NCBI GenBank assembly: GCA_965242605.1
Contig: CBDESS010000004.1
Location: 5,835 to 69,834 of the forward strand
Source: an uncultured Candidatus Binatia bacterium
GTDB lineage: Bacteria > Desulfobacterota > Binatia > Bin18
Direction: 5' to 3'
Length of the DNA: 64,000 bases
Position numbers and translations under genes: made by a program. Shown in pieces: positions 4,666 through 24,170 of the stretch (positions are counted from its first letter, which is position 1; every line of letters starts with the position of its first letter). The notes under the pieces were generated by a model, which was given only the letters and a program-made list of their open reading frames with translations, did no database searches and was not told the DNA's origin.

Positions 4666-7103
4666 TCGACCGCCTCCGGGCCCCCTGAGGCGGCCCGGGC
4701 CTCCACCCGGACCGCTACCTCCCAGACCCGCTCGGCCCCCCGGCCCTGCCCCGTCCGCAGCTCAGCGATGCGGTAGGCTGGCAGCCGAATGGACCCCAGA
4801 CACCTGCCAGCGAACAACGCCGCCTGCTGCACCTGCGGGGCGTGACCGGGGTGCCGCCAGAACGTGAAATCAAGCACCCGAAAGCCCTCGGATTGGCGGA
4901 CCCCCACGAGCACGGCCGGGTCCCGCGGCCTGACGTGCAGAAAGAAGCCGGGTTCTGTGTCCGCCCGGCGACACGGAGCCCGCAGGTAGGTCAGCGTGGT
5001 CCCGGCGAGGTACACAGCGAAATGCGACCGGGCCACGGGGGGACCCGCCACCGTCGCCCGGTAGGCCGTGCGCACGGCGTCGGTCGCCGGGGCCCCGGGC
5101 GGCGACACAGGGATGGTCACCCGCCACAACTCGGCCCCCCCCTCCCTGCTCGCTACTTGGCTGGCTTCAATGGCCTGAATCAGATAGGCCGGCAAGGGCA
5201 GCCGAATCAGACACCACCCGTCCACCCGCACGCCGTACCGCCTAAGGGCGAAACGCAACTCCTCAAAGCCCCACTTCCGACGCCGCTGGGACAGAGCGGC
5301 CACATCCACCGGGAAGACCCGCACCACGAAGGGCCACCCCCTGTGCAGGTCCGCCGGGCCGCAGGACGTCTTCACCCACATCAAAGTCCGGCTCTCCAGA
5401 TACAGGGCAAAGTCCGCCCGCCCGACCGCCGGCCCGCCCGGCACGGCCCGGGCTACGGCCCGATAGGCGGCCGTGGTGGCCGCGTTGACCCGAGTCAGGT
5501 TGAGGGCCGTCACCGTCAGGAAGGTGTTGTGGTAAATCTTGCGGGCATAGAGGCGAGGCGCGAAGGGGGGACCGCCGAGGTCGCGCCGCAAGAAGTCCAG
5601 GGAGGAACTGAGCACCTGAAAGTCCCCCGGTGGTGCCCCGCCCGCGGCGAAGGCGAGGCGGTGGCGCGCCGCTTTGGGAAGAATGAGCCGGTTTGGGACC
5701 CCCAGAACATGCATCTCCAGCGAGATCGGTGAAGTGGGATAGCGATGGAGGACATGTTCCAACCCCTCCCGGTATATGGTTCCCCAGGAGTACATCTCGT
5801 ACTGGGTCCCCAGGGAGTCGGGCGTGTGCCGGTCAACCAGGGCGTTGAAATAGACCTGCTGATAGGGATGAATGGAAACCGTTGCGACGACCACCCCGGC
5901 CAAGCTCACTGCGGCCAGCGCGTAGACGCCGGGCCGCAGCCTCGGCCGGGGGCAGACCACCGCCAGCCAGCGCAGCCCGAACACCGCCAGCAGACACAGC
6001 GGGGCGTACAGAAAGTAGACCTGACGCCAGTCGTTGTAGAGATTGGCGTTGACGACAATGACGGCGACGACCGGGAGCACCAGACAGGCGACGAGCAGCA
6101 GGCCGAAGCGGGCGACGGGGTCGCCCGGCACGGCACCGGGAGAGCGCAGGCCACGATGTATCACGGACACTGCCCCCACCAGACCCAGCAGCAGCACCCC
6201 CGGCGGGGTGGTAATGGCGATCCAGGTTGGAAGGTAGTGTGCGGGAATATCCGGCCAGTGCACCAGCTCGCCCTGGAAGAGGGTCGAGGAGTGAGTCGGA
6301 TGCTGGGAGGAGACTGCCACAGCCTCGCCCAACAGCAAGGGGTCGCCCCACAGATAGGGCGAGACCGTGTACAGCGTCAATACACTGGCCACCACGAACA
6401 CCGCCCCAGTGCTCAGAACGTGCCAGCGTGCCGCCCGCCCCGCCGCCCCCGCCAGGTCGCCCGCCCGCAGGACCACCACCACGACGAACAGCAACGCGCC
6501 CATGATGCGCAGGTTGGTCGCTACCCCCACCCCCACCCCGCACAGTGCGAACGCCCCAAGGCTCTCCCGCCGCCACGCCCGGTAAATCAGGAACAGAGCG
6601 ACCAGGAACATCACCAGGAAGGGGATGTCCTTGGTGTTGACAAAGGAGTGGGCGTAAAGCCGGGGATGGAGCACGAACAGCAGCAGGGCCGCCAGGGCCA
6701 GCCACCGGCTGCGGAAGAGCTGGTACACCAGCCGGGCACAGCAGTAGCCACCGGCCAGAAAGAAGAGATGGGTCAGCAGATGGCGGCTCAGGTAGATGGC
6801 CCGGCTGTCGGTGAGGCCCAGCAGCCGCTCAACGAGTACCAGCGGCACCTCGAAGACAACGCCATAGAACCGGTGGAAGGGAGGATAGGAGGGCAGCAGG
6901 GTTTCGGCGTCTCCCAGCATGTAGTCGACCGTCGCATGGCCGATGTAGTACTGGACTGGATCGTCCGTCGTTATGCCGTAGTCGTCGAGGACGACCATGC
7001 CCATGACGGCCAAGACCGCCAGGGCCAGGAGCGTGCCGCGGGCAAACACGCCAGCGCCTGCCCTCTGACCCCACTTCGGGAGGGACGCCAGGATACCGCT
7101 CAC
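4662..7103 (-). CDS. GT-C-fold membrane glycosyltransferase paralog, 813 aa
   Basis: 813-aa ORF. GTG start at 7103 overlaps the TGA of the next copy. Same architecture as 2224..4665. Confidence 0.8.
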   Translation of the reverse strand: MSGILASLPKWGQRAGAGVFARGTLLALAVLAVMGMVVLDDYGITTDDPVQYYIGHATVDYMLGDAETLLPSYPPFHRFYGVVFEVPLVLVERLLGLTDSRAIYLSRHLLTHLFFLAGGYCCARLVYQLFRSRWLALAALLLFVLHPRLYAHSFVNTKDIPFLVMFLVALFLIYRAWRRESLGAFALCGVGVGVATNLRIMGALLFVVVVVLRAGDLAGAAGRAARWHVLSTGAVFVVASVLTLYTVSPYLWGDPLLLGEAVAVSSQHPTHSSTLFQGELVHWPDIPAHYLPTWIAITTPPGVLLLGLVGAVSVIHRGLRSPGAVPGDPVARFGLLLVACLVLPVVAVIVVNANLYNDWRQVYFLYAPLCLLAVFGLRWLAVVCPRPRLRPGVYALAAVSLAGVVVATVSIHPYQQVYFNALVDRHTPDSLGTQYEMYSWGTIYREGLEHVLHRYPTSPISLEMHVLGVPNRLILPKAARHRLAFAAGGAPPGDFQVLSSSLDFLRRDLGGPPFAPRLYARKIYHNTFLTVTALNLTRVNAATTAAYRAVARAVPGGPAVGRADFALYLESRTLMWVKTSCGPADLHRGWPFVVRVFPVDVAALSQRRRKWGFEELRFALRRYGVRVDGWCLIRLPLPAYLIQAIEASQVASREGGAELWRVTIPVSPPGAPATDAVRTAYRATVAGPPVARSHFAVYLAGTTLTYLRAPCRRADTEPGFFLHVRPRDPAVLVGVRQSEGFRVLDFTFWRHPGHAPQVQQAALFAGRCLGSIRLPAYRIAELRTGQGRGAERVWEVAVRVEARAASGGPEAVE

Positions 7104-9529
7104 CCGGCCTCCTCCGGGCCGGCTGAGGCGGCCCGGGCCTCCACCGGGACCGCCGCCGCCCAGACCCGCTCGGCCCCCCGGCCCTGCCCGGTCCGCAGCC
7201 TGGTGATGGGGTAAGCTGGCAGCCGAATGGACGCCAGACAGGTGCCGGCAAAGCGCGCCGCCTGGTCTACCTGCGGGGCATAACGGGGGTGCCGCCGGAA
7301 CGCGAAATCGAGCACCTCAAAGCCCCGGGACCGGCGGGCCGCCGCGAGCACAGCCGGGTCCCGGGGTCTGACGTGCAGAAAGAAGCCGGGGGCCGTGTCC
7401 GCTGGACGACAGGGGGCCCGCAGGTAGGTCAGCGTGGTCCCGGCGAGGTACAGGGCAAAGCGCGACCGGGCCACGGGGGCACCCGCCACCGCCACCCGGT
7501 AGGCTTCGCGCACCAGGTCGGTCCCGGTGGCACCGGGAGGCGACACAGGGATGGCCACCCGCCACAGATCGGTGCCCCCGAAAGGCAGCACTTGCCTGGC
7601 TTCAATGGCCCGGCTCGGATAGGCCGGCAAGGGCAGCCGAATCAGACACTGGCCGTCCACCAGGACACCGTACCGGCTGAAGTCGAAGTACCTCTCCTCA
7701 AATCCCCACTTCCGACGCCATCGGGGCAGGTCGGCCACATCCACCGGGAAGACCTGCACCGAGAAGGACCCGCGCAGGTCCGCCGGGCCGCAGGCCACCT
7801 TCACCCACATCAGGGTCTGGTCATCCAGATACAGGTCAAAGCCCACCCGACCGACCGGCACCCCGCCCGTCACGACCCGGACCACAGCCCGATAGGCGGC
7901 CGTGGTGGCTACATCCACCCTGGCCAAGTTGGGGGCCGTCACCGTCAGGACGGTGTTATGGTAAATCTGATGGTTATAGAGGTGAGGCGCGAAGAGAGGG
8001 CCGCTAAGGCCGCGCCGCAAGTTTGAGTGGTGATCGATCACCTGAAAGTCCCCAGACGGCACCCCGCCCTCGGCGAGGACGAGGCGGCGGCGCACCGCTT
8101 TGGGAAGAATGAGCCGATTCCGGACCCCCAGACCATGCATCTCCAGCGAGATCGGTGAAGTGGGATAGCGGCGGAGGAGATGTTCCAACCCCTCCCGGTG
8201 CGTGGTTCCCCAGCGGTCCATCTCGTACCAGGTCCCCAGGTAGTCGGGCGTGCACCGGTCCACCAGGGCATTGAAATAGGCTATCTGGTGGGGATGGAGG
8301 GCCACCAGCTCGACGACCACCCCGGCCAGGCCCGCCGCCGCCAGCCCATGCATGCCCTGCCGCAACACGGCCCAGCGACAGACCGCCGCCAGCCAGCGCA
8401 GCCCGAACACTGCCAGCAGACACACCGGGGCGTACAGAAAGTAGACCTGACGCCAGCCGTTGTAAAGGTTGGCATTGACAACGAGGACGGCGACAACCGG
8501 GAGGACCAGACAGGCGACGAGCAGCAGGCCGAAGCGGACGACGGGGGCACCCAGCACGGTGCCGGGGGAGATCAAACCGCGATGCATCACGGACACTGCC
8601 CCTACCAGACTCAGCAGCAGCACCCCCGGCGGGGTGGTGATGGCAATCCAGGTCGGAAGGTAGTCCGCAGGAAGCTCCGGCCAGCGTACCGGCTCGCCCT
8701 GGAAGAGGGTCACAGCGTGAATCGGGTGCTGGGAGAGGACTGCCACGGCCTCACCTAGCGCCAAGGGGTCACCCCACAGGTAGGGCGAGACCGCGTACAG
8801 CGTCAACACACTGACTGCCACGAACACCGCCCCCGTGCTCAGAACGTGCCAGCGTGCCGCCCGCCCTGCCGCCCCCACCAGGTCGCCCGCCCGCAGGACC
8901 ACCACCACAACGAACAGCAGCACGCCCATGATGCGCAGGTTGGTCGCTACCCCCACCCCGACCCCACACAGTGCGAACGCCCCAAGGCTCTCCCGCCGCC
9001 ATGCCCGGTGAATCAGGAACAGGGCAACCAGGAACAGCACCAGGAAGGGGATGTCCTTGGTATTAACGAAGGAGTAAGCGTAGAGCCGGGGATGGAGCAC
9101 GAACAGCAGCAGGGCGACCAGGGCCAGCCAGCGGCTGTGGAAGAGGTGGTACACCAGCCGGGCACAGCAGTACCCACCGGCCAGAAAGAAGAGGTGGGTC
9201 AGCAGATGGCGGCTCAGGTAGATGGCCCGGCTGTCGGTGAGACCCAGCAGCCGCTCAACGAGCACCAGCGGCACCTCGAAGACGACGCCATAGAACCGAT
9301 TGTGGGGAAGACCGGGGGGCAGCAGAACCTCAGCGTCCCCCAGCAGGTAGTTGACCGCCGCATGGCCGTGTCCGTACCGGAGCTCTTCGTCCCGCGAAAC
9401 GCCGTAGTCGTCAAGGACGGCCACGCCCATGACGGCCAAGACCGTCAGGGCCAGGAGTACGCTGCGGGCAAGCGCGACATCGCCTGCTCCCTGGCCCCGC
9501 TTCGGGGGGGACACCGGGATACCAGTCAC
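7100..9529 (-). CDS. GT-C-fold membrane glycosyltransferase paralog, 809 aa
   Basis: 809-aa ORF. Conserved N-terminal TM domain. C-terminal domain more diverged from copies 2/3 and closer to copy 5. Confidence 0.8.
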   Translation of the reverse strand: MTGIPVSPPKRGQGAGDVALARSVLLALTVLAVMGVAVLDDYGVSRDEELRYGHGHAAVNYLLGDAEVLLPPGLPHNRFYGVVFEVPLVLVERLLGLTDSRAIYLSRHLLTHLFFLAGGYCCARLVYHLFHSRWLALVALLLFVLHPRLYAYSFVNTKDIPFLVLFLVALFLIHRAWRRESLGAFALCGVGVGVATNLRIMGVLLFVVVVVLRAGDLVGAAGRAARWHVLSTGAVFVAVSVLTLYAVSPYLWGDPLALGEAVAVLSQHPIHAVTLFQGEPVRWPELPADYLPTWIAITTPPGVLLLSLVGAVSVMHRGLISPGTVLGAPVVRFGLLLVACLVLPVVAVLVVNANLYNGWRQVYFLYAPVCLLAVFGLRWLAAVCRWAVLRQGMHGLAAAGLAGVVVELVALHPHQIAYFNALVDRCTPDYLGTWYEMDRWGTTHREGLEHLLRRYPTSPISLEMHGLGVRNRLILPKAVRRRLVLAEGGVPSGDFQVIDHHSNLRRGLSGPLFAPHLYNHQIYHNTVLTVTAPNLARVDVATTAAYRAVVRVVTGGVPVGRVGFDLYLDDQTLMWVKVACGPADLRGSFSVQVFPVDVADLPRWRRKWGFEERYFDFSRYGVLVDGQCLIRLPLPAYPSRAIEARQVLPFGGTDLWRVAIPVSPPGATGTDLVREAYRVAVAGAPVARSRFALYLAGTTLTYLRAPCRPADTAPGFFLHVRPRDPAVLAAARRSRGFEVLDFAFRRHPRYAPQVDQAARFAGTCLASIRLPAYPITRLRTGQGRGAERVWAAAVPVEARAASAGPEEAG

Positions 9530-11997
9530 TCGGCCTCCTCCGGGCCGACTGAGGAGGCCCGGGCCTCCACCCGGGCCGCCGCCGCCCAGGCCCGCTCGGC
9601 CCCCTGGCCCTGCCCGGTCCGCAGCCCGGCGATGGGGTAAGCCGGCAGCCGAATGGCCGCCAGACAGGTACCAGCGAAGAACACCGCCTGGTCTACCTGC
9701 GGGGTGCGACGGGAGTGCCGCCGGAACGCGAAATCGAGCACCTCAAAGCCCCGGGGCCGGCGGGCCGCAGCGAGCACGGCCGGGTCCCGTGGCATGATGT
9801 GCAGAAAGAAGCCGGGGGCCGTGTCCGCCGGACGACAGGGGGCCCGCAGGTAGGTCAAGGCGGTCCCGTCAAGGTACAAGGCAAAGTGCGACCGGGCCAC
9901 GGGGGGACCCGCCACCGTCGCCCGGTAGGCCGTACGCACCAGGTCGGTCGCGGTGGCACCGGGGGGCGACACAGGAATGGCCACCCGCCACAGATCGGCA
10001 CCCGTGGAAGGAGCCACTTGACCGGCTTCGATGGCCCGGATCGGGTAGGCTGGCAAGGGCAGCCGGAGCAGACACCGGCCGTCCACCCGGACGCCGTACC
10101 GGCTGAAGTCGAAGTACCTCCCCTCAAAGCCCCACTTCCGACGCCACCGAGGCAGATCGGCCACGGCCGCCGGAAAGACCTGCACCGAGAAGGAGCGCCC
10201 GCGCGTGTCCGCTGGGCCGCAGGCCGCCTTCACCCACATCAAAGTCTGGCCATCCAGATACAGGTCAAAGCCCGACCGACCGACCGGCACCCCACCCGTC
10301 ACGACCCGGACCACGGCCCGATAGGCGGCCGTGGTGGCCGCGTCTACCCGGGCCGGGTTGAGGGCCGTCACCGTCAGGATGGTGTTGTGATAAATCTGGC
10401 GGGTATAGAGGCTGGGTGCGAAGAGGGGACCGCTAAGGCCGCGCCGCAAGTTTGAGTGGTGATCGATCACCCGAAAGTCCCCTGGCGGCGCACCGCCCTC
10501 GGCGAGGACGAGGAGGCGGCGCGCCGCTTTGGGAAGAATGAGCCAGTTTTGGCGCACCTGGCCGATATCCAGACCGCGTGTCTCCACCGAAACCGGTGAG
10601 GTGGGATAGCGGTGGAGGAGATGTTCCAACCCCTCTCGGTATGTGGTTCCCCAGCGCTCCATCTCGTACTGGGTCCCCAGGTATTCGGGCGTGCGCCGGT
10701 CCACCACGGCGTTGAAATAGGCCATCTGGTGAGGATGAAGGCCCACCAACTCGACGACCACCCCGGCCAGACCCGCTGCGGCCAGCGCGTGGACGCCCGG
10801 CCGCAGCCCCGGCCAGGGGCAGACCGCCGCCAGCCAGCGCAGCCCGAACACTGCCAGCAGACACAGCGGGGCGTACAGAAAGTAGACATGACGCCAGTCC
10901 ATGTAGAGGTTGGCATTGACGACGAGGACGGCGACAACCGGGAGCACCAGACAGGCGACGAACAGCAGCCCGAAGCGGGCGACGGGGTCGCCCAGCACGG
11001 TACCAGGGGAGCGCAGGCTGCGATGCATCACGGACACTGCCCCTGCCAGACTCAGCAGCAGCACCCCCGGCGGGGTGGTGATGGCAATCCAGGTCGGAAG
11101 GTAGTCCGCGGGGATATGCGGCCAGCGCACCGGCTCGCCCTGGAAGAGGGTCGCAAGGTGAATCGGGTGCTGGGAGAGGACTGCCACGGCCTCACCTAGC
11201 GCCAAGGGGTCACCCCACAGGTAGGGCGAGACCGCGTACAGCGTCAATACACTGGCCACCACGAACACCGCCCCCGTGCTCAGAACGTGCCAGCGCGCCG
11301 CCGCCCCCACCAGGTCGCCCGCCCGCAGGACCACCACCACAACGAACAGCAGCACGCCCATGATACGCAGGTTGGTCGCTACCCCCACCCCCACCCCGCA
11401 CAGTGCGAACGCCCCAAGGCTCTCCCGCCGCCACGCCCGGTGAATCAGGAACAGGGCACCCAGGAACATCACCAGGAAGGGGATGTCCTTGGTATTAACG
11501 AAGGAGTAAGCGTAGAGCCGGGGATGGAGCACGAACAGCAGCAGGGCGACCAGGGCCAGCCAGCGGCTGTGGAAGAGGTGGTACACCAGCCGGGCACAGC
11601 AGTAGCCACCGGCCAGAAAGAAGAGGTGGGTCAGCAGATGGCGGCTCAGGTAGATGGCCCGGCTGTCGGTGAGGCCCAGCAGCCGCTCAACGAGCACCAG
11701 CGGCACCTCGAAGACGATGCCGTAGAACCGGTTGGCGGGACCACCAGGGAGCAGCAGGACCTCGGCGTCTCCCAGCAGGTAGTTGACCGCCGCATGGCCG
11801 ATCCGGCGCTGAGGGGACTCCTCGTCCGCCCCTACGCCGTAGTCGTCAAGGACGGCCACGCCCACGACGGCAAAGACCGCCAGGGCCAGGAGCGCACTGC
11901 GGGCGAGCACGCCGGCGACTGCTCCCTGGCCCTGCTTCGGGGGGGACGGCGGGATACCATTCACTCGGCCCCCTCCTTGCCGGGGTCGGAAGACCAC
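9526..11997 (-). CDS. GT-C-fold membrane glycosyltransferase paralog, the last copy of the array. Likely true start GTG at 11964 rather than 11997.
   Basis: 823-aa ORF. The paralog-conserved N-terminus begins at …VNGIPPSPPKQGQ. GTG at 11964..11962 overlaps the TGA (11961-11963) of the upstream GT2-remnant ORF, the same GTGA junction as inside the array. Confidence 0.8.
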   Translation of the reverse strand: MVFRPRQGGGRVNGIPPSPPKQGQGAVAGVLARSALLALAVFAVVGVAVLDDYGVGADEESPQRRIGHAAVNYLLGDAEVLLLPGGPANRFYGIVFEVPLVLVERLLGLTDSRAIYLSRHLLTHLFFLAGGYCCARLVYHLFHSRWLALVALLLFVLHPRLYAYSFVNTKDIPFLVMFLGALFLIHRAWRRESLGAFALCGVGVGVATNLRIMGVLLFVVVVVLRAGDLVGAAARWHVLSTGAVFVVASVLTLYAVSPYLWGDPLALGEAVAVLSQHPIHLATLFQGEPVRWPHIPADYLPTWIAITTPPGVLLLSLAGAVSVMHRSLRSPGTVLGDPVARFGLLFVACLVLPVVAVLVVNANLYMDWRHVYFLYAPLCLLAVFGLRWLAAVCPWPGLRPGVHALAAAGLAGVVVELVGLHPHQMAYFNAVVDRRTPEYLGTQYEMERWGTTYREGLEHLLHRYPTSPVSVETRGLDIGQVRQNWLILPKAARRLLVLAEGGAPPGDFRVIDHHSNLRRGLSGPLFAPSLYTRQIYHNTILTVTALNPARVDAATTAAYRAVVRVVTGGVPVGRSGFDLYLDGQTLMWVKAACGPADTRGRSFSVQVFPAAVADLPRWRRKWGFEGRYFDFSRYGVRVDGRCLLRLPLPAYPIRAIEAGQVAPSTGADLWRVAIPVSPPGATATDLVRTAYRATVAGPPVARSHFALYLDGTALTYLRAPCRPADTAPGFFLHIMPRDPAVLAAARRPRGFEVLDFAFRRHSRRTPQVDQAVFFAGTCLAAIRLPAYPIAGLRTGQGQGAERAWAAAARVEARASSVGPEEAE

Positions 11998-12245
11998 AGG
12001 TCAAGACCGTAGCACCTGCCCGCCCGCCAACCCCTCCATCCCAGTTCGGGAAGTTGCTCAAGGGCAGCCACCAGACAGCGGTGCATCTCGGGCAGGACCG
12101 CTTCCTCATTGAAGCAGGGGACAACTACAGACAGGAGACTACAGTTTCTAACACTGAATCGGGGCGGCAGCAGGCGGTGAAGAGATCGTGCCATCAGCCC
12201 TATCAGTGCCGGGAAGTATACGTCTGGGAAATCTCTATGAGACAT
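11961..12245 (-). pseudogene. Remnant of a GT2 (Dpm1/ArnC-like polyprenyl-phosphate sugar synthase type) glycosyltransferase. Only the N-terminal ~67 aa remain, fused to a few codons resembling a GT-C 3' tail.
   Basis: 94-aa ORF contains the classic GT2 N-terminal motif LSVVVPCFNEEAVLPE…LEQLPE. It then lacks the expected (D)YEII.VDDGS motif in any frame. It terminates on the GTGA junction of the first array gene. Confidence 0.5.
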
Positions 12246-12925
12246 TCAAACAAGTGGCTGGCTTCGACCGTGGGGATAGGCTCTGGCACCGTCTGGTGTA
12301 TCAGTTCCTTGTCGAAGAACCCGTCAAGCGAACCGGCCAATCCAATGGAGCGAGCAAATGCGGTCAGGGGGGCAACAATGGTCCGATGGAACGCCTCCGG
12401 CCTCCAGTGCAGCACGGGGAACCGCAACTTTTCGTGCAAGAGAACAAGTTCGGTATTATACGCACACCACAGCCGCAGACCATCGTCCCTCTCGACCGTA
12501 AGCGAGCCGTGTCTAGCGGCGAGCGACCGGATGACCAGAGACGGGTGCCGAAATATCGCTATGGGGCGCGCACCGGGTACCAACCGCAGCCATCCCTCCA
12601 CGGTCCACATGGTGCGGGGATCCTTGAATCCCCAGGGACGTGCGGCTTCAAGATAGGGAAAAATCAGTGCCTTGCCTTGTCTTTCGCTCTTGTGATCCCA
12701 CTTGACTTGGCCACTTGGCGGGTCCCTCCAGGAGGCACCCGCCTTGGTCAACAGCGCATCGTTCAACTCCCGTATGGCTTCATTTTCCTTATTGCCCTTT
12801 TTGTTGAAAGGGGCTTGGTGATTAACATCGCCCAGATACAACCCTCCAGCCTCTAGGCTGCCGAGCAGAAGTGATGTTCCACTCCGGTGCATCCCCAAAA
12901 CGATCACACATGGAGACTGTGACAT
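12203..12925 (-). CDS. Sulfotransferase family protein (PAPS-dependent)
   Basis: 240 aa. N-terminal VIVLGMHRSGTSLL matches the 5'-phosphosulfate-binding loop of sulfotransferases. Plus-strand ORFs here are antisense shadows. Confidence 0.7.
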   Translation of the reverse strand: MSQSPCVIVLGMHRSGTSLLLGSLEAGGLYLGDVNHQAPFNKKGNKENEAIRELNDALLTKAGASWRDPPSGQVKWDHKSERQGKALIFPYLEAARPWGFKDPRTMWTVEGWLRLVPGARPIAIFRHPSLVIRSLAARHGSLTVERDDGLRLWCAYNTELVLLHEKLRFPVLHWRPEAFHRTIVAPLTAFARSIGLAGSLDGFFDKELIHQTVPEPIPTVEASHLFECLIEISQTYTSRH

Positions 12926-12966
12926 CTCACCCCCCCCTCTCCTCTCGGCGGAATCCGGGAATCGGT

Positions 12967-13857
12967 CTATTCTTCGCGCAAGAGAAACCGCCGGGCGGCA
13001 GGGTGCATATGTCCGACGAAAACGGGGTCTACGGATTCGTGAGCTTCATACGGCTTGCCGTATATTGTCTCATATTCCTCCTGGTAGAGCTCCCACGGGT
13101 GCTGACCCATGGGGACATTCGTTGCAAAACCGCCGTGGAATTGATGGAATGTTCCTTCGCCCAACAGACAGACAGGTGTCAAAGCGTCGTCCAGAACCGC
13201 ACGCTGGAAGAAATCATGAGTGGCCAAGCCGCCTGCCGGTCTCTGGAATGCTTCATTGAAACCACCCATGTAAAAAAAACGGTTACGGCCGATCGTGAGA
13301 CAACTGCTCTCCGCTATCGTCCCGAAATAGCCACCGCGGGATGAGAGGGCCAGGCAGGAGATCTTGAACAGCCGATAGCCGTCGCTTCGCCAATCAATAT
13401 CGTGAAGAAGCCTGTCCTCGGTATTCTGGTCATATCCCTTGAGCATGGAATCGTTCTGTATCTCGTCGCCCAGGTGGAATCCTGGGGTATAGATGAAAGG
13501 ATTTGTGAATCGTTCGGTACAGAAACGCATCCATCCAAGTATGCCGGGGCTGCAAATACGGGCCCCATCAATCAGGAGCATGACATAGGGGGATTTTGCC
13601 CGGCGCACGCCGTAATTCACGGCAGACACCGGGGATACCGACGAGGTCGGATAGGAGATGTACTGAAACTGCCGTCCGAAACGCTTGACCTCGGCTTTGG
13701 ACAGGGGGACCGAAGAACCGTTGTCTATGGCGATCACTTCGTAAGGAAAGCTCACCTGCTGATATTCGGCGGACAGGGAAAAGAGCGTCCTTGGCGCTTC
13801 GCGTCTCATATTGTAGAAGATCACCACGACGGAGAGCTTGGGTCTTTTGAAAATCAT
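12967..13857 (-). CDS. GT2 family glycosyltransferase. The ORF extends to 13956 but the likely start is the internal Met at 13857.
   Basis: MIFKRPKLSVVVIFYNMRREAPRTLFSL…YEVIAIDNGSS are GT2 N-terminal/DxD-type motifs. 4-nt gap to the sulfotransferase start region. Confidence 0.8.
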   Translation of the reverse strand: MIFKRPKLSVVVIFYNMRREAPRTLFSLSAEYQQVSFPYEVIAIDNGSSVPLSKAEVKRFGRQFQYISYPTSSVSPVSAVNYGVRRAKSPYVMLLIDGARICSPGILGWMRFCTERFTNPFIYTPGFHLGDEIQNDSMLKGYDQNTEDRLLHDIDWRSDGYRLFKISCLALSSRGGYFGTIAESSCLTIGRNRFFYMGGFNEAFQRPAGGLATHDFFQRAVLDDALTPVCLLGEGTFHQFHGGFATNVPMGQHPWELYQEEYETIYGKPYEAHESVDPVFVGHMHPAARRFLLREE

Positions 13858-13924
13858 GACGCACTCCCCTGTGACCGCAATAATCTGATAGCGGCGACAT
13901 CTCCCATTCCCATTTTTCTGCTCG

Positions 13925-15775
13925 TCAATCCAACTCAAACGCCTCTGCGTGTTCATGCCGGAGCGCCGGGTTCTGATCCTCTTTGCGCAAAAAACAGTTA
14001 CCGATGGCTAGACAATCAAGGTCGGTACCCATGAAACAGCGAAAGGCGTCCGCGGGGGTGCACACGATAGGCTCGCCGCGCACATTGAAGCTGGTGTTCA
14101 CGATGACCGGGCAGCCCGTTCTGGCCTTGAACGCTTCAAGCAGCGCGGAGTAGCGGGGGTTGGTCTCAGGATGGACGGTCTGCACGCGGGCGGAATAATC
14201 GACATGGGTTACCGCGGGAATGTCCGAGCGCGGGATGTGCAACAGATCAACGCCGAACAGGGCCCGCTGCGCCTCGGTCGTCGCCTTGCGTCGCTCTGGC
14301 TTCACGGCCGCGACCAGCAGCATATAGGGGCTGTCGCGGTCAAGCTCGAACCAGTCAGCCACATCGGCCCGCAGCACGCTCGGCGCAAAGGGGCGGAAGG
14401 ACTCGCGGTGTTTGACCTTGAGGTTGAGCGTCTTTTGCATGGCGGGCGAACGTGCGTCGGCCAGGATGGAACGGTTGCCCAGGGCACGCGGCCCAAACTC
14501 CATCCGCCCCTGAAACCAGCCCAGCGCTTTGCCGGCGGCCAGCGACTCGGCCGTAACGTTGATCAGCGCGTCGGTCGTCAAGGTCTCGTGGCACGCGCCG
14601 GCCGCGTCAAGCGCCGCGCAGATCTCCTTCGGGCTGAACTCGGGGCCGAGAAAAGCCCCGCGCATGGCATCGTCAGGTGCTCCGCCGCTGGTCTCGCCGC
14701 AATGGCGCGGCTCACCAAACAGACGATGGCTTGCCAACAGCGCCGCGCCCAATGCCCCTCCGGCGTCGCCCGCCGCCGGCTGCACCCAGATGTCCGCAAA
14801 CTTCCCGTCTCGCACCACCTTGCCGTTAGCCACGCAGTTGAGCGCCACGCCGCCGGCCAGACACAGATACGGGATGCCGGTCTCCGCCCGCAGCGAGCGG
14901 GTCAGCCGCAGCACCGCTTCCTCAACCACCGCCTGGGCCGAGGCCGCCAAGTCCATGTGCCGCTGCGTCACCGGCTCCTGCGGCGTCCGTGCTGGACCGC
15001 CGAACAGCGCGTCGAAGCGGCCGTTGGTCATCGTCAGCCCGGTGCAGTAGTCAAAGTAGTCAAGGTTGAGGCGGAAGGTACCGTCGGCCTTCAGGTCGAT
15101 CAGGTGGTCAAGAATAGTGCGGGCGTAGGTCGGCTCGCCATAGGGGGCCAGGCCCATCAGCTTGTATTCGCCGGAGTTGACCTTGAAGCCGGTGTACAGG
15201 GTGAAGGCCGAGTAGAGCAGCCCCAGGGAGTGCGGGAAGTGGAGCTCTCGGATGATCTCCAACTCGTTGCCGTGGCCGATGCCGACCGAGGTGGTGGCCC
15301 ATTCGCCCACCCCGTCCAGGGTCAGGACTACCGCGTCGCGGAACGGAGACGGATAGAACGCGCTCGCCGCATGCGCCTGGTGGTGCTCGGCGAACAGCAG
15401 CTTGGTGTTCCAGTCCACATCCGGGGCGAGTCCTTGCAGTTTCCGGCGCAGCAGGTTTTTCTGAAACAGCTTCTCTTTGATCCACAGCGGGGCGGCCATG
15501 CTGAAGGAGCGGAAGCCGCGCGGCGCAAAGGCCACACAGGTTTCGAGCAGCCGCTCGAACTTGAGGAAGGGTTTGTCGTAGAACGCCACCCGGTCAATGG
15601 CCGCGGGGGGAAGGCCAGCCTGAGCGAGACAGGAGGCAATGGCCTTGGCCGGATAGCCGGAATCGTGCTTCTTGCGGGTGAAGCGCTCCTCCTGGGCCGC
15701 GGCGACGATCCGCCCACCGTCCACCACAGCTGCGGCGCTGTCGTGATAGAAGGCTGAGATACCAAGAACGCGCAT
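13925..15775 (-). CDS. Carbamoyltransferase, NodU/CmcH/TobZ (HypF-like) family, 616 aa
   Basis: Full-length match to the carbamoyltransferase family: MRVLGISAFYHDSAAA…, YSARVQTVHPETNPRY, NTSFNVRGEPIV. Confidence 0.85.
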   Translation of the reverse strand: MRVLGISAFYHDSAAAVVDGGRIVAAAQEERFTRKKHDSGYPAKAIASCLAQAGLPPAAIDRVAFYDKPFLKFERLLETCVAFAPRGFRSFSMAAPLWIKEKLFQKNLLRRKLQGLAPDVDWNTKLLFAEHHQAHAASAFYPSPFRDAVVLTLDGVGEWATTSVGIGHGNELEIIRELHFPHSLGLLYSAFTLYTGFKVNSGEYKLMGLAPYGEPTYARTILDHLIDLKADGTFRLNLDYFDYCTGLTMTNGRFDALFGGPARTPQEPVTQRHMDLAASAQAVVEEAVLRLTRSLRAETGIPYLCLAGGVALNCVANGKVVRDGKFADIWVQPAAGDAGGALGAALLASHRLFGEPRHCGETSGGAPDDAMRGAFLGPEFSPKEICAALDAAGACHETLTTDALINVTAESLAAGKALGWFQGRMEFGPRALGNRSILADARSPAMQKTLNLKVKHRESFRPFAPSVLRADVADWFELDRDSPYMLLVAAVKPERRKATTEAQRALFGVDLLHIPRSDIPAVTHVDYSARVQTVHPETNPRYSALLEAFKARTGCPVIVNTSFNVRGEPIVCTPADAFRCFMGTDLDCLAIGNCFLRKEDQNPALRHEHAEAFELD

Positions 15776-15778
15776 GGT

Positions 15779-15928
15779 TCAAAAGAGCGTGTATATCATC
15801 GGCGCGACCGCGCTGGTCTGGGCCAGCACAATCAGCCAGCCCAGCACCAGCATGGTGACGATGGCCGGCAGCAGCCAGTATTTCTTGCGCACGCGCAAAA
15901 AGGTCCAGAGTTCGCACAGAAACGACAT
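15779..15928 (-). CDS. SxtK-like small membrane peptide (49 aa). Not in the supplied ORF track because it is below the length cut-off.
   Basis: Manual translation of the minus strand gives MSFLCELWTFLRVRKKYWLLPAIVTMLVLGWLIVLAQTSAVAPMIYTLF*. This matches the conserved small-peptide family found next to carbamoyltransferases (SxtK-like). ATG at 15928..15926, TGA at 15781..15779, 3 nt before the carbamoyltransferase start. Confidence 0.6.
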   Translation of the reverse strand: MSFLCELWTFLRVRKKYWLLPAIVTMLVLGWLIVLAQTSAVAPMIYTLF

Positions 15929-15936
15929 GACACACC

Positions 15937-16371
15937 TCAGAACTGGTTTTGCATGGACTCGGGTTCTGGCCCTGGCGGCTCGCGGTGGAGCCAGTAACTG
16001 GGCACGGTCGGGTCGGCGCGCAGACGCAGCGGGTCCTTGCCCAGGGCACGCATGATGAGGCCGGTCGGCGTCACCACCGCGAAGTAGATCATGGCCAGGA
16101 TGACCGGGCTGACGAGGCGGTGGAGGAGCAGGCCGAGCCTGAACCAGACCGTGTTGAACGGGGCCAGCGCCTCGGCCTTGACCAGCGTCACCGCCAGCAC
16201 CACACCGGCAACGGCCAGCGCCCAGCCGCGGGGCGGCCTGCCGCCGAGCAGCGGCAACAGACCGATCACGACAAACAGGGCGACAAGGACGGCACCAAAA
16301 CCGCGCTCTGAGCTCCTTGCAACCGCTTCTTCGTCTGTCAGTCGCTCGTGGGACTGCATCCGTTTCGGCAT
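15937..16371 (-). CDS. SxtJ-like small membrane protein (144 aa)
   Basis: 144-aa ORF with two hydrophobic segments. Size and position (directly upstream of the SxtK-like peptide and the carbamoyltransferase) match the sxtJ-sxtK-carbamoyltransferase triad. Confidence 0.55.
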   Translation of the reverse strand: MPKRMQSHERLTDEEAVARSSERGFGAVLVALFVVIGLLPLLGGRPPRGWALAVAGVVLAVTLVKAEALAPFNTVWFRLGLLLHRLVSPVILAMIYFAVVTPTGLIMRALGKDPLRLRADPTVPSYWLHREPPGPEPESMQNQF

Positions 16372-16620
16372 ATCAAAGGTCCTTCTCTTCTGGAGTCCAG
16401 CGGGTTGACATCCAGCGGTCGAACGCGCTACTCCCTGCCAGAGGCAGTAAGTCTATCAAGAACGCAGGTCTTAGCAAACCGGTCGTATGGTCATCCATGC
16501 GAACCGTCGTTTTTTTCATCTATTGACGATGGCGAACACAAGGCGAACACAAGGAAGAAGGCAGCTAAGCAGGTCATCTACCGCTACGGCGATAAGCGCA
16601 AGAACAACCCGCATGTCGGT

Positions 16621-17250
16621 ATGGTCGATACGGTCAGCGACGGGGTAGAAGGCCAGACAGCATGGGCCTGTGACCCGCACATTGACCCGACACTCAACTT
16701 TGACTCTGCCCGGGCCGGCATTGAGCGGCTGATTGATGACGCCCCGGTCATGCGTGAGGCCCTGGAGCGGATCAAACGCCTGCACGCGCCCTATCTCAAC
16801 TGGACTGGCAAGGCTGAGCGCACCAGCTTTGCGGTGGATACCGTGTCGCTGCATGTCCACGAGTGGATTGACCCGGCGACGATTCTGGCCACGATGCAGA
16901 AGCGCGATCGGAGGGCAAAGGGCAGCGGGGCTGGCGAGTTCCAACCCGACCTGTTTGCCGCCCCGTTTGAGAACCTGCCGCTACGCGAGGCGATTGACTT
17001 CTACCAGCATGAGCGCGACTGGGCCAACCGGCTGATTGCCAGCGATTCGCTGCTGGTGATGAACTCGCTCTTGCACAAAGAAAGCATGGCCGGCCAAGTG
17101 CGGATGATCTACATTGATCCGCCCTACGGCATCAGATACGGCTCGAACTTCCAGCCCTTCACCAACAAGCGGGATGTCGCGGATTCTGATCGGGACGAAG
17201 ATTTCACAAATGAACCTGAGACGACCGCGGCATCGAAAGCCTCAAAGTGA
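16621..17250 (+). pseudogene. Type III R-M Mod (beta-class N6-adenine MTase) N-terminal fragment. Contains motif IV DPPY but lacks the TRD and motif I.
   Basis: …LNWTGKAERT… and LIASDSLLVMNSLL…VRMIYIDPPYGIRYGSNFQPF align with the EcoP15I Mod N-terminus (SLNWLGKSYARLL…VKMIYIDPPYNTGKDGFVYND). The ORF stops ~20 aa after DPPY. The listed ORF start 16348 overlaps the SxtJ-like gene, so the start is probably ATG 16621. Confidence 0.6.
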
Positions 17251-17348
17251 TGGACCTCCCCGACTGAACCAGCCGCCTCTTTCCTCGTCTTTCCTCTCCA
17301 CCCGGGAGAGGGTCAAGGTGAGGGCAACACGCCAGTGGAGACACCGCC

Positions 17349-18752
17349 ATGAAATTCGTATTCAAACACCTCGGCCCTATCCACAACGCCGAACTGGAGC
17401 TCGGCGACCTGACCATCCTCGCCGGCCGCAACAACACCGGCAAGACCTATATGGCCTATACGCTGTACGGGTTTCTTAAATTATGGAGACACGGATCTGA
17501 GTTCTGGCGAATTATTCATAGCTTGACCGAAGAATCTCTCTTACCGGACTTCAGAGAGAAAAAAACGCGGCTCAAAACATTCATAGAGGAGGGACAGGTG
17601 AAATGGCGCGTAGACCGGGAGACGCTTCATTCGCAGCAGAAATCAATTATGCAAAAAGTGTCGCAGTCCTTCTCAAAAGAAGAACTGGCGAACATGTTTA
17701 GCGCTTCGGATGAGGATTTCGAGAGCGCGTCCATCGGGGTCGTGGTCAAAGACCAGTTTTCCGACCATACGTCCAAAACTCTTGAATTGTCTCATGGGGA
17801 CGAGCTCACAATCACATATAGCGGCGGTGAAATATGTATCTCCAGAAACGAACCGCTCAAGAAGCTTCCATCTAGTTCCGCTATCGGGTTCTCGCTCACA
17901 TATCTTTATCTCTCATTTCTTTTTCCAGAAATTCTTAGCCTCAGCCCCCTTATCCTCTCCGCGGAACGTTTCAGCATATCCCTTTTTTACAAGGAGCTGG
18001 ACTTCACAAAGAATCGCTTAGTAGAGATGCTTCAAGAGAACAGAAAAAAAGACTTCCCCCTTTCGCGCGTGATGATCGACAGGGTAGCGAGTCGGTACGC
18101 TCTGCCCATCAGGGACAACATTGACTACACCAGGAATATTCCTGAGCTTCAAAAGCGACGAAGTAAACTCTATGACTCGAAATTGTTTGAGGACATCAAG
18201 GATATGCTCGGAGGATACTACAGGAGCTCAGACGATGATATCCGGTTCATCTCAAAGGCTCGGAAAAAAAGACGTTTTGATATCCCCCTCCATATCGCTT
18301 CGTCTTCGGCCCGTGGCTTGTCCGACCTGTATTTCTTCCTGCGACATGTCGCCGAAAAGAATCAACTCCTCATCATTGACGAGCCGGAAAGTCATCTGGA
18401 CACGGCCAATCAGATTCAGTTCGCGCGTCTGCTGGCACGAGCCGTCCACGCCGGGCTGAAAGTCCTGATTACCACCCACAGCGACTACATCGTCAAGGAA
18501 ATCAACAACCTGCTCATGCTGAGCAGGGATTTCAAAGACAAACCCGAGGTACTCAAAAAATACGGCTACTCAGAGCACGACTTCCTGAATCCCGCTTCGG
18601 TCCGGGCCTATGTGGCGGAAAACAACAGCCTGACACGGTGTACGGTTGACCCCTTCGGCATTGACATGCCGGTCTTTGACATAACCATTGATGCGATCAA
18701 CCGTGTTACCAGGGAACTTGAGATCCGGCTGACGCACGAAGAAGAAGAGTGA
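17349..18752 (+). CDS. ABC-type/AAA_21-like (OLD/PtuA/AriA/RloA-like) ATPase, 467 aa
   Basis: Walker A GRNNTGKTY, Walker B/D-loop LLIIDEPESHLD, H-loop TTHSDY. GC drops to ~45% from ~17460. RBS GGAGA upstream of the ATG. Confidence 0.85.
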   Translation: MKFVFKHLGPIHNAELELGDLTILAGRNNTGKTYMAYTLYGFLKLWRHGSEFWRIIHSLTEESLLPDFREKKTRLKTFIEEGQVKWRVDRETLHSQQKSIMQKVSQSFSKEELANMFSASDEDFESASIGVVVKDQFSDHTSKTLELSHGDELTITYSGGEICISRNEPLKKLPSSSAIGFSLTYLYLSFLFPEILSLSPLILSAERFSISLFYKELDFTKNRLVEMLQENRKKDFPLSRVMIDRVASRYALPIRDNIDYTRNIPELQKRRSKLYDSKLFEDIKDMLGGYYRSSDDDIRFISKARKKRRFDIPLHIASSSARGLSDLYFFLRHVAEKNQLLIIDEPESHLDTANQIQFARLLARAVHAGLKVLITTHSDYIVKEINNLLMLSRDFKDKPEVLKKYGYSEHDFLNPASVRAYVAENNSLTRCTVDPFGIDMPVFDITIDAINRVTRELEIRLTHEEEE

Positions 18753-18753
18753 A

Positions 18754-19230
18754 GTGGAGTTGATCTCTCAATTGAAGGCCATCCTGAAGCCAGAATTAAT
18801 TCAAGAAGCAGAGTCAGATGATCCCTTCATCCTTGAGGAGTCTCCTAAAAACCAAGAAGGCACAAGGGTTGAGCTTCACGGTGTTTCAGCGCCTTTCCTG
18901 GCTGTGTGCGTGAAGAAGCTCAATCACCTGTCAGCTTTGCAGCAAGGCGCGTGGCGACAAATCTGTGACTATCTACTGATTGGGCAATCAGATGGCAACG
19001 ATTATGCTGTTTTTGTCGAGTTGAAGAAGACGCTGCGAGAAGACGAAAAGCCCCGGGAGCAGCTCAGACGCTCGCTGCCGCTTTTGGAATACCTGCTTTC
19101 TGTATGCGCGGTTGAGTACAGCAGCGGAAAATCCAACCTGACAATACGCTATGTCCATATTGCCGAACGATTGAACACCAGGTTTGCCAAGCAGGGAGGG
19201 AAAATTGAAATGACGCTATTGAAGCCGGGC
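18754..19230 (+). CDS. Small PD-(D/E)xK- or Toprim-like putative nuclease partner of the ATPase (RloB/AriB-like role). The 3' end is uncertain: the ORF reads on to 19491 into high-GC sequence.
   Basis: GTG start 1 nt after the ATPase TGA. Motifs ILEESPKNQEG … GQSDGNDYAVFVELKK (D…ExK / DxxD). Low GC continues to ~19215. No in-frame stop at the GC transition, so the gene may be 3'-disrupted. Confidence 0.5.
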
Positions 19231-20640
19231 TGGTCAAAACGCTTCGCGTGGTCGTGCGGGACGACGCCCTGGCCAACGCCCAGAGCTACACAAGCAAGCT
19301 CTACCACCTCTACAATGAAGCCGAGGTCAAAGAGGTCCTCAACCGCAGGGCCGAGCCGCACGAACCCCTGCCGGACCTGGTTCAGAAAGCCTATGCCCTG
19401 CTGGCCTACGACTGGCGGGAGACCGCCCGGCAATGGACCATTGAAAGCGCGGCCCGGGTGGAGCGCTTTTTTACAGCCGGAGACTGCTTGATCCCCGAAA
19501 CCCGCCAGCCCGACCGTACCCTGCAGGTAGACTCCCGGGTGCTGGAGAAAGCCGAACGGGGCGAATCTGCCGCAGCCAACAAGGACTACGCCCAACGCCG
19601 GCGCGCCGTTCTCATGGCCGCCGGTCCGGAGACGACAAGCGCGAAGCGCTGCTCAGGGCCAGCTAGGAAGAGCAACTGCGCAGCCTGGTCGATACAGTCG
19701 GCAAACGCGGTCAGGCCGGCCAGCGCCTCCAGAATGTGATCTCGGTCGCCATGCTGTCAGAGGGCTGGGACGCGGCCAATGTGACCCACATCATGGGCCG
19801 GCGGGCCTTTACCAGCCAGTTGTTATGCGAGCAGGTCATTGGCCGAGGGCTGCGCCGGGTGTCCTGTGAGGTGGACAAGGAAGGCCGCTTCCTGCCCGAA
19901 TATGTCAATATCTTTGGCATACCGCTGTCCATCTTCCAGGAGCTCGGCCAAGGTGGGGACGCCCCGCCACCACCCAAGCCCAGCGTACAGGGCGAGGTCG
20001 TGCCGGGCCGCAATCAGTTCAAGATCCGCTGGCCAAATGTGGCCCGAGTCGAAACAGCGCCGCGGCCAAGCCTGCTCCAAGCCTGCTTATGGACTGGGAG
20101 ACGGTAGAGCCGCTGACCCTGGACCCCATGCAGACGCCTATCTCGGCTGAACTCGTCCCGGCGCTGGCCGGCCAGACCGACCTGTCTGAAGTCAGCGCCA
20201 TTGAGTTGGAACGCGAGGTCGGGGAGCTTCAACTGAAAATCTGCTCTTCCGGGCCGCCGGCAAGCTGTATGTGCAGAGCGCCGACGCCTGCTCGGGCAAC
20301 TGCCAATACTTGGCAGTACAGATGTTGTCTTTGCCTCGGCACATATCCGGGATGTGGTCATGGGGCATGCGTCATTGCGGATCAGACAGAGAGATGCTCC
20401 ATGAACACGGCTCAACAAAAGATGCCGCTGAGCTTGCAGAACTTCCCGGCCTCAGTCCCGCCGACGGGGCTGAAGTCCAACTCCGTAGCGACCCGAACGA
20501 CGTAATCATTGAGGCCGGACACAAATCACCCATCAGCAGATCGCAAAACTGGCCCGCACCTCCCGACCACGGGTCACGGCGATTCTCAGCCGCAACACAA
20601 AGGACGCATCCACCGACCTGATGATCCGCGCATCATGGCC
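19209..20640 (+). pseudogene. Type III R-M Res (SF2 helicase-nuclease) C-terminal remnant, multiply frameshifted
   Basis: Helicase motif V …AMLSEGWDAANVT and motif VI QVIGRGLRRV. Coding continuity requires switching between the ORF frames 19248..19739, 19736..20107 and 20089..20505. No N-terminal helicase motifs I-III are present. Confidence 0.55.
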
Positions 20641-20648
20641 ACTTGAGG

Positions 20649-24026: not shown

Positions 24027-24170
24027 ACTGCATTCCTCCTCAAAGTGTGTGTGCTGCTCCCTCTTGTACGCCACCTCAGCACGGTTTTCCAGGGCGGGCG
24101 CGTCTTCCCCGGCGCGCTTGGCGTGTGGTATAGCACACCAGAGGAACACGACACAGAGGAGGATAGGGTC

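Follow-up and report, generated by a model that had tools for sequence, protein, structure and literature searches.

Saxitoxin clusters contain an sxtI-J-K-L block, and the suomilide cluster contains sxtJ, K and L. In saxitoxin reviews sxtJ and sxtK are described as uncharacterised, and the literature searched makes no mention of DUF5989, a small family that accompanies sxtJ-like genes in the locus described here. That locus lies in a stretch of 64,000 nucleotides (nt) from an uncultured Candidatus Binatia bacterium (GenBank assembly GCA_965242605.1, contig CBDESS010000004.1, positions 5,835 to 69,834), referred to as the window. Between positions 11961 and 16371 the minus strand carries co-oriented genes for an SxtJ-like protein, a peptide of 49 amino acids (aa), a carbamoyltransferase, a GT2-like protein and a sulfotransferase, then the relic of a further glycosyltransferase gene; a tandem array of GT-C glycosyltransferase genes follows. 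The initial annotation took this string for one pathway to a carbamoylated and sulfated glycan. All six genes are found where it placed them, and profile (Pfam) and fold searches back its family assignments, though the GT2-like protein matches weakly. The failure of profile support that would have refuted the initial annotation did not occur. With a modest leaning, the locus is read here as a composite envelope glycan-modification region built by accretion, in which the triad (SxtJ, DUF5989 and carbamoyltransferase) and the GT-C enzymes would share an envelope target. Its parts are of known kinds: an sxtIJK-like module, a GtrB/GT-C glycosylation system and a sulfated-glycan cassette. What is new is the combination, its recent and partly decayed state, and a connection through a rare domain, here called domain X.

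The triad consists of the SxtJ-like gene (15937-16371, 144 aa), the gene of the 49-aa peptide (15779-15928) and the carbamoyltransferase gene (13925-15775, 616 aa), all on the minus strand and separated by 8 and 3 nt. The SxtJ-like protein matches PF19588 with 34.2 bits (gathering threshold, GA, 24.4), and the peptide matches DUF5989 (PF19451) with 83.7 bits (GA 27) over positions 1-49 of 49. The peptide appears SxtK-like, as judged by its size and position. Hydropathy predicts three transmembrane (TM) segments in SxtJ, one in DUF5989 and none in the carbamoyltransferase, the GT2-like protein or the sulfotransferase. The resemblance to sxtI-J-K(-L) is one of an O-carbamoyltransferase next to two short genes of matching size, with SxtJ and DUF5989 matches above threshold. 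Unlike the saxitoxin cluster, the window holds no other sxt genes and no SGNH/SxtL gene, and the triad is surrounded by envelope-glycan enzymes rather than by alkaloid biosynthesis.

The carbamoyltransferase matches both domains of its family in full: the Kae1/ASKHA-like Carbam_trans_N with 350.4 bits (GA 24, model positions 1-346 of 346) and the YrdC-like Carbam_trans_C with 250.5 bits (GA 27, 1-170 of 170). It aligns end to end with the structures of NovN, GdmN and TobZ (E-values 3e-93 to 1e-82). The columns of the HHxxH motif (H131, H132, H135), D154 and D337 are invariant across 12 homologues, and the string 'hh aha s' is conserved between the protein and NovN. These His and Asp residues would correspond to the metal ligands of TobZ, an HxxxH motif and two Asp in the N-domain. 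The protein is predicted on these grounds to be a soluble O-carbamoyltransferase of the NodU/CmcH/TobZ superfamily. Enzymes of this family convert carbamoyl phosphate and ATP to carbamoyl-AMP, from which an O-carbamate is formed. Orthology with NodU itself was considered and rejected, the score against NCBIfam NF041651 being 140.2 bits where the cutoff is 1000. The two-domain architecture and the conserved metal-site His and Asp are those of TobZ, NovN, GdmN and NodU. Unlike these tailoring enzymes, the protein keeps 59-91% identity across phyla and is paired with SxtJ and DUF5989. Its length varies between 610 and 749 aa in the close clade (homologues P0017-P0120), owing to an insertion of variable size that separates the two domains near residue 357 of the window protein; the short form is that of the window and its nearest relatives.

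Conservation of the triad was counted over 87 carbamoyltransferase loci. These include four metagenome contigs (L001-L004) in which the carbamoyltransferase is 91% identical, the nearest relatives, and the best 80 of 600 stretches from a scan of GTDB genomes (L007-L086), where identity is 59-79%. Among those best 80, the nearest named carbamoyltransferase is that of a Vicinamibacterales metagenome-assembled genome, 79% identical. SxtJ homologues are found upstream on the same strand in 81 of the 87 loci and DUF5989 in 82, and the order SxtJ-DUF5989-carbamoyltransferase is kept in at least 73. The carriers among the GTDB loci include Alphaproteobacteria (Pelagibacteraceae of the SAR11 group, Bradyrhizobium, Methylocystis, Ensifer, Mesorhizobium) as well as Acidobacteriota, Gemmatimonadales, Nitrospira, Chloroflexota and Caldilineaceae. 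The triad occurs even in the streamlined marine genomes of SAR11. Among the carriers that can be cultured are Bradyrhizobium, Ensifer adhaerens L18, Methylocapsa acidiphila B2 and Reyranella aquatilis. The initial annotation had called the carbamoyltransferase-SxtJ-SxtK grouping conserved yet uncharacterised, and the counts and the saxitoxin reviews bear it out on both points. The triad can be regarded as an ancient, self-contained and widespread module.

The company kept by the triad is a different matter. In most genomes it lies among unrelated housekeeping genes, and the synteny proposed earlier, triads adjacent to GT-C genes, is seen in none of the 80 GTDB loci; nor do GT2-like or sulfotransferase homologues stand beside the triad in any of them. 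Over all loci examined, GT-C homologues are confined to the relatives L001-L004, and GT2-like and sulfotransferase homologues occur in no locus other than the window. A Pfam census of neighbours at three positions (the first and second genes downstream of the carbamoyltransferase and the first upstream of SxtJ) found no GT2, PMT_2 or sulfotransferase family in two or more loci among the top 25 families at each position. The sole recurrent neighbour is an SGNH/GDSL-like protein, detected with an iterated hidden Markov model (HMM) search in 53 of the 87 loci and mostly directly flanking the triad. In the census Lipase_GDSL_2 accounts for 14 of 78 first and 3 of 71 second downstream genes and for 9 of 74 first upstream genes, and some of the flanking genes give weak AlgX-like matches (Pfam ALGX). 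This partner is AlgX-like, with a single N-terminal anchor by hydropathy, and is predicted to face the periplasm. The arrangement recalls sxtL, since a GDSL/SGNH gene, the class of SxtL, flanks the triad in most other genomes. In the 64-kb window no SGNH homologue was found.

The GT-C genes form an array of at least five tandem copies of about 2.44 kb each on the minus strand of window 1-11964. Copies 1-4 occupy 1-9529, copy 1 being cut by the window edge, and copy 5 (9526-11964, 812 aa) stands nearest the triad. Its start is the GTG at 11964 and not 11997, as alignment to the other copy junctions indicates. The protein matches PMT_2 with 34 bits (GA 26.1) and begins with 10 or more TM segments; a soluble part of about 400 residues follows, with two copies of domain X. 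An acidic LDDYG motif follows TM1 in all five copies. DNA identity between copies is 84-92%, highest for copies 2 and 3 (92%) and for 4 and 5 (90%). Successive copies are joined by overlapping GTGA stop/start signals. Three long contigs of relatives (L001-L003) all end inside the first GT-C gene, which is expected if repeats break short-read assemblies. A metagenome scan with the GT-C protein returned only relatives of 28-31% identity, none of them close to a triad, GtrB, cassette or domain X, and no intact GtrB-GT-C ancestor was found in it.

Domain X is the feature that ties the GT-C genes to the triad. It comprises about 115 residues at the C-terminus, with the motif F·LYL…Y·K·PC··AD…FFLHV·P·D··LP…GF··LDF·F…G·C…LP·Y·I…TGQ…W and two invariant Cys, and it has no Pfam model. 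In GT-C copy 5 the two repeats lie at 9970-10335 and 9568-9951 (minus), and the HMM finds two in every copy. The domain is rare: among 1.84 billion cluster representatives a full HMMER search found 2,234 with a match, and a single protein can have as many as 10 repeats. The counts rest on this search; a word-indexed homologue search with the domain alignment returned four proteins only. It is most often fused to PMT or PMT_2 (12 and 8 of 60), once to Wzy_C, and also to SGNH proteins. An AlphaFold2 model (mean predicted local distance difference test score, pLDDT, 84.5) consists of a helix and a β-sandwich.

In the clade whose carbamoyltransferases are at least 80% identical, domain X recurs immediately downstream of the triad. 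The gene directly after the carbamoyltransferase encodes an SGNH-like protein with a C-terminal domain X in L005 (domain at about 13280-13621), a six-TM protein with a C-terminal domain X in L006 (about 13100-13472) and an SGNH fragment with domain X in L090. In L091 it encodes a plain SGNH-like protein without the domain. Further downstream in L090 are a GT2 gene and genes for a PMT_2-like protein of 1,038 aa and a protein of 761 aa, the latter two with domain X; the domain X-bearing genes of that locus are 11957-12952, 15185-18337 and 18316-20712. A domain X protein thus stands directly after the carbamoyltransferase in four of the five independent loci of this clade, and in the window the domain is carried by the GT-C proteins. 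In L090, L005 and L006 the domain X gene is on the same strand, 19-146 nt from the carbamoyltransferase. GT-C-like genes lie within 10 kb in three of the five loci. Since the same domain is found on SGNH or membrane proteins downstream of the triad and on the GT-C enzymes, the most likely target of both the triad and the GT-C array is one and the same envelope polymer, as far as domain sharing and gene order can tell.

Directly upstream of GT-C copy 5 lies the relic (12040-12194, minus), within a region where a short open reading frame (ORF) of 11961-12245 had been called and described as a GT2 remnant. It keeps only its first ~50 codons (…LSVVVPCFNEEAVLPEMHRCLVAAL…), fused to sequence just upstream of copy 5. 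Window 12061-12138 is 92% identical to 11976-12053 of L002, the closest relative, and encodes the N-terminus …LSVVVPCFNEE…. In L002 an adjacent ORF of 123 aa (12094-12465) aligns to residues 189-295 of GtrB (PDB 5EKP) with an E-value of 4.4e-19, and also matches ArnC structures (1e-4) and NCBIfam PgfS. Residues 189-295 are the juxtamembrane and TM part of this polyprenyl-phosphate glycosyltransferase. The L002 gene has lost its catalytic middle and carries a frameshift, and its stop overlaps the GT-C start. The remnant is accordingly identified, by this comparison, as a pseudogene of a GtrB/ArnC-type polyprenyl-phosphate glycosyltransferase, which would formerly have supplied the donor for the GT-C genes. 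The polyprenyl-linked donor proposed for these enzymes in the initial annotation fits such a relic. The overlap with the sulfotransferase that had been reported arises only if an ATG further upstream is taken as the start; that of the relic itself, at 12194, lies 8 nt past the sulfotransferase stop.

From the L002 comparison an ancestral order of triad, GtrB-type synthase and GT-C genes follows, and the synthase has decayed independently in the two lineages. The window yielded no intact GtrB-like gene. Since the synthase is dead, the GT-C enzymes would need a donor made elsewhere. The GT2-like protein was considered as a replacement and rejected, as it has no TM segments and its family is a different one, linked to the cassette. 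A sixth GT-C copy may have been deleted at the junction of the relic and the array: only the last ~22 nt there (19 of 22 identical) resemble an inter-copy junction, which a shared ribosome-binding site and start context could also explain. The ancestral arrangement resembles the two-step periplasmic glycosylation of GtrB/GtrC and ArnC/ArnT: a GtrB/ArnC-type gene directly upstream of GT-C, a stop/start overlap in L002 that suggests translational coupling, a PMT_2 match and an acidic first loop (LDDYG). It differs in that the GtrB-type gene is dead in both window and relative, that GT-C is present in at least five copies with two domain X repeats each, and that no GtrA-like flippase was identified.

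Between the triad and the relic lies a segment of 1,745 nt (12139-13883) that holds the GT2-like and sulfotransferase genes, where L002 has 89 nt. BLASTN aligns L002 9305-11886 with window 16471-13884 (90.6% identical) and L002 11976-12053 with 12138-12061, and the cassette is in none of L001-L004. The first block includes the triad's upstream leader (16372-16471, minus), conserved against the closest relative; homology stops at 16471, and an Rfam scan of window 11500-21000, leader included, matched no family. The GC content of the cassette segment is 0.52-0.59, compared with 0.63-0.70 in the flanks, and the GC content at third codon positions (GC3) is 0.64, compared with 0.81-0.84 in the triad, the GT-C genes and the TauD gene; that of a defence island, described below, is 0.60-0.62. 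The lower GC and GC3, together with absence from the closest relative, indicate a foreign origin.

The GT2-like gene most likely extends over 12967-13857 (minus, 296 aa). Its frame is open to 13956 and would then overlap the 3' end of the carbamoyltransferase gene, but homologues align from the ATG at 13857, which is for that reason the preferred start. With this start the gap to the carbamoyltransferase is 67 nt, and that to the sulfotransferase is 41 nt. The spacing of 1-10 nt previously given for the whole string holds inside the triad but not beyond it. The GT2-like protein matches Glycos_transf_2 (PF00535) with 31.5 bits (GA 23.3) over model positions 1-85 of 168 only, and its PF10111 score is below cutoff. 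Its family profile finds only GT-A glycosyltransferases in the PDB, weakly, with E-values from 4e-4 (6p61) to 0.46. Where a DxD motif is expected the protein has IDGAR, of which the first Asp alone is kept in four of four family members.

The sulfotransferase gene (12203-12925, minus, 240 aa) matches Sulfotransfer_3 (PF13469) with a borderline 28.0 bits (GA 27.0), for which reason the structure was modelled; PF13469 is precomputed on most homologues. The AlphaFold2 model, made with 23 homologues, has a pLDDT of 89.1, and its top 22 Foldseek matches in the PDB are all sulfotransferases (best 4gox, E-value 7.8e-6). The motifs for binding of 3'-phosphoadenosine 5'-phosphosulfate (PAPS) are invariant in 24 homologues, H13-R14-S15-G16-T17-S18 for the 5'-phosphosulfate-binding (5'-PSB) site and R126-H127-P128…S134, in the pattern RHP..V..S, for the 3'-phosphate-binding (3'-PB) site, and align with the same motifs of Stf9. 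Homologues number 1,642, the nearest 64-67% identical. Functional analogues are known in the rhizobial sulfotransferases LpsS and NodH.

In three other loci (L087, L088, L089) a GT2-like homologue of about 300 aa (34-38% identical) directly precedes or overlaps a sulfotransferase homologue (64-65% in L087 and L089), and in all three of these contexts the pair occurs without the triad. In L087 and L089 there are, in addition, GT1-sulfotransferase fusions and ABC-2/ABC transporter genes, and in L089 a sulfatase. Recurrence of the same pair in the three loci marks it as a portable cassette of sulfated-glycan clusters. It has the gene pair and order seen in sulfated polysaccharide or O-antigen clusters with ABC-2 (Wzm/Wzt-like) export such as L087 and L089, while the window pair stands alone, without ABC transporter, GT1-sulfotransferase fusion or sulfatase genes. 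The two genes thus form a conserved cassette, probably acquired recently and inserted after the carbamoyltransferase.

A second insertion specific to the window, of 4.2 kb (16472-20690), separates TauD from SxtJ; L002 has 122 nt there. Its content is a PD-T4-4 anti-phage system set within what is left of a type III restriction-modification system. The former includes PD-T4-4_A (17349-18752, 352 bits) with a PDC-M47B-like partner (18754-19491, a weak match), and the latter is represented by an N-terminal fragment of Mod (16348-17250) and a fragment of Res (19736-20107). Some of the ORFs in the window are not genes. Long ORFs on the plus strand (650-2098, 2404-3294, 5745-7214, 14171-15757 and similar ones, up to 528 aa) stand opposite the GT-C and carbamoyltransferase genes and are mirror-frame artefacts of high GC3. 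An ORF of 885 aa (22914-25571) corresponds to an Amidohydro_2 gene whose product has 370 aa in L002; its upstream extension, across an MlrC-like gene on the opposite strand, is spurious.

From the observed gene identities, predicted topology, mosaic structure, identity of the relic, conservation of the cassette and sharing of domain X a scheme can be drawn, in which co-transcription, membrane docking, a common substrate and all of the chemistry are inferred. The soluble, TobZ-like carbamoyltransferase would be translationally coupled to two small membrane proteins, and SxtJ and DUF5989 would dock it at the inner membrane, where a lipid-linked or envelope acceptor may be carbamoylated. The cassette would probably add a sugar, which would then be sulfated in the cytoplasm. 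The relic would once have made the lipid-linked donor for the GT-C enzymes and is now dead. The GT-C enzymes would use a polyprenyl-phosphate donor to glycosylate an acceptor in the periplasm, and the domain X repeats, a predicted β-sandwich containing a disulfide, may recognise that acceptor.

In the linear pathway of the initial annotation, which one dedicated operon would encode, the GT2 enzyme adds a sugar, carbamoylation follows with the aid of SxtJ and SxtK, then sulfation, and the GT-C enzymes transfer the decorated unit, carried on a polyprenyl lipid, to an acceptor in the periplasm. Co-orientation, gaps of 3-67 nt, terminators no more frequent than background and the support for the enzyme families are consistent with it, as are the polyprenyl-phosphate glycosyltransferase relic adjoining the GT-C genes, domain X as a tie between triad neighbourhood and GT-C genes, and a possible second contig with carbamoyltransferase and sulfotransferase homologues (P0092 and P0364). 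It is nevertheless unlikely, given that the cassette is compositionally foreign, missing from the closest relative and found without the triad in 3 of 3 contexts, that the triad lacks GT-C, cassette and domain X in 80 of 80 GTDB loci, and that the lipid-sugar synthase is dead, with a GT2-like protein that has no TM segment and is no substitute for GtrB. One coherent route through carbamoylation, sulfation and GT-C transfer is not supported by these comparisons. The pathway idea is upheld in part, in that a common envelope target is plausible; conservation as a carbamoyl/sulfo pathway is not supported.

Alternatively, the genes may be unrelated neighbours at a hotspot of insertion and recombination, with the triad acting on some conserved substrate other than a glycan, either a small metabolite or a membrane lipid, as SxtI acts on a saxitoxin precursor. 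The housekeeping surroundings of the triad in most genomes, the insertions on both of its flanks compared with L002 (the defence island at 16472-20690 and the cassette at 12139-13883) and the service of sxtJ/K(/L)-type genes in small-molecule pathways, adjoining sxtI in saxitoxin clusters and also in suomilide clusters, would all be accommodated. Chance is an unlikely reason, however, for a rare domain to follow the carbamoyltransferase immediately, and on its strand, in 4 of 5 clade loci. The usual SGNH partner, AlgX-like, membrane-anchored and facing the periplasm, points to an envelope polymer, and 3 of 5 clade loci have GT-C-like genes within 10 kb; the explanation by mere neighbourhood is rather doubtful.

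Several observations weigh against the composite reading. Domain X is found in none of the 80 GTDB triad loci, and the link between triad and GT-C is for that reason specific to one clade and rests on four of five loci. A Foldseek search with the domain X model gave no PDB match better than an E-value of 0.017. The promoter/terminator scan found no promoter-like site at all on the minus strand, and terminator-like sites were at background (6 compared with 4.2 expected, none convincing between genes); the scan is uninformative on co-transcription. Sampling of the GTDB scan is incomplete, being the best 80 of its 600 stretches, and the neighbour census takes in the top 25 Pfam families per position. 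Lastly, P0092, a carbamoyltransferase homologue, and P0364, a sulfotransferase homologue, both list a longest contig of 20,449 nt. Should both lie on one contig, this may be no single insertion but a cassette of greater age, or one that recurs next to the triad. P0092 is about 82% identical, with an insertion of about 135 residues in the inter-domain linker; P0364 is partial, 68% identical over 175 aa and then divergent.

A bolder extension, quite improbable at present and argued by analogy, is that the triad and its periplasm-facing partners form an unrecognised and widespread system of envelope O-carbamoylation, from SAR11 to rhizobia. Its partners would be SGNH/AlgX-like proteins in most genomes and, in this clade, SGNH, GT-C or other membrane proteins bearing domain X. 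The cytoplasmic enzyme would activate the carbamate at the membrane, as a carbamoyl counterpart of O-acetylation by AlgI/J/X or PatA/B; the two small membrane proteins would pass the carbamate, or a carbamoylated lipid-linked sugar, across; and the periplasmic partner would install or trim the carbamate on a glycan recognised by domain X. The likeness to the AlgI/AlgJ/AlgF/AlgX and PatA/PatB relays would lie in a membrane component paired with a membrane-anchored, periplasm-facing SGNH/AlgX-like protein. Unlike those relays, the triad has no MBOAT protein, and the donor would be carbamoyl, not acetyl. With the acquired sulfotransferase, the decoration might become a sulfated glycan, possibly N-sulfocarbamoyl and saxitoxin-like.

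A tight run of co-oriented genes can be a mosaic of recent date. This one combines a cassette that was inserted, a donor synthase that is dead and a transferase that was amplified, and prediction of a pathway from adjacency alone therefore overreaches. Knowledge of the genes sxtJ and sxtK goes back to the description of the saxitoxin cluster, and here they are part of a self-contained module conserved across phyla. The habitual partner of this module is a periplasm-facing SGNH protein, which in one clade shares the rare domain X with GT-C and other envelope enzymes. Taken together, the cross-phylum module, its periplasm-facing partner and the shared domain make an envelope polymer the likely target.

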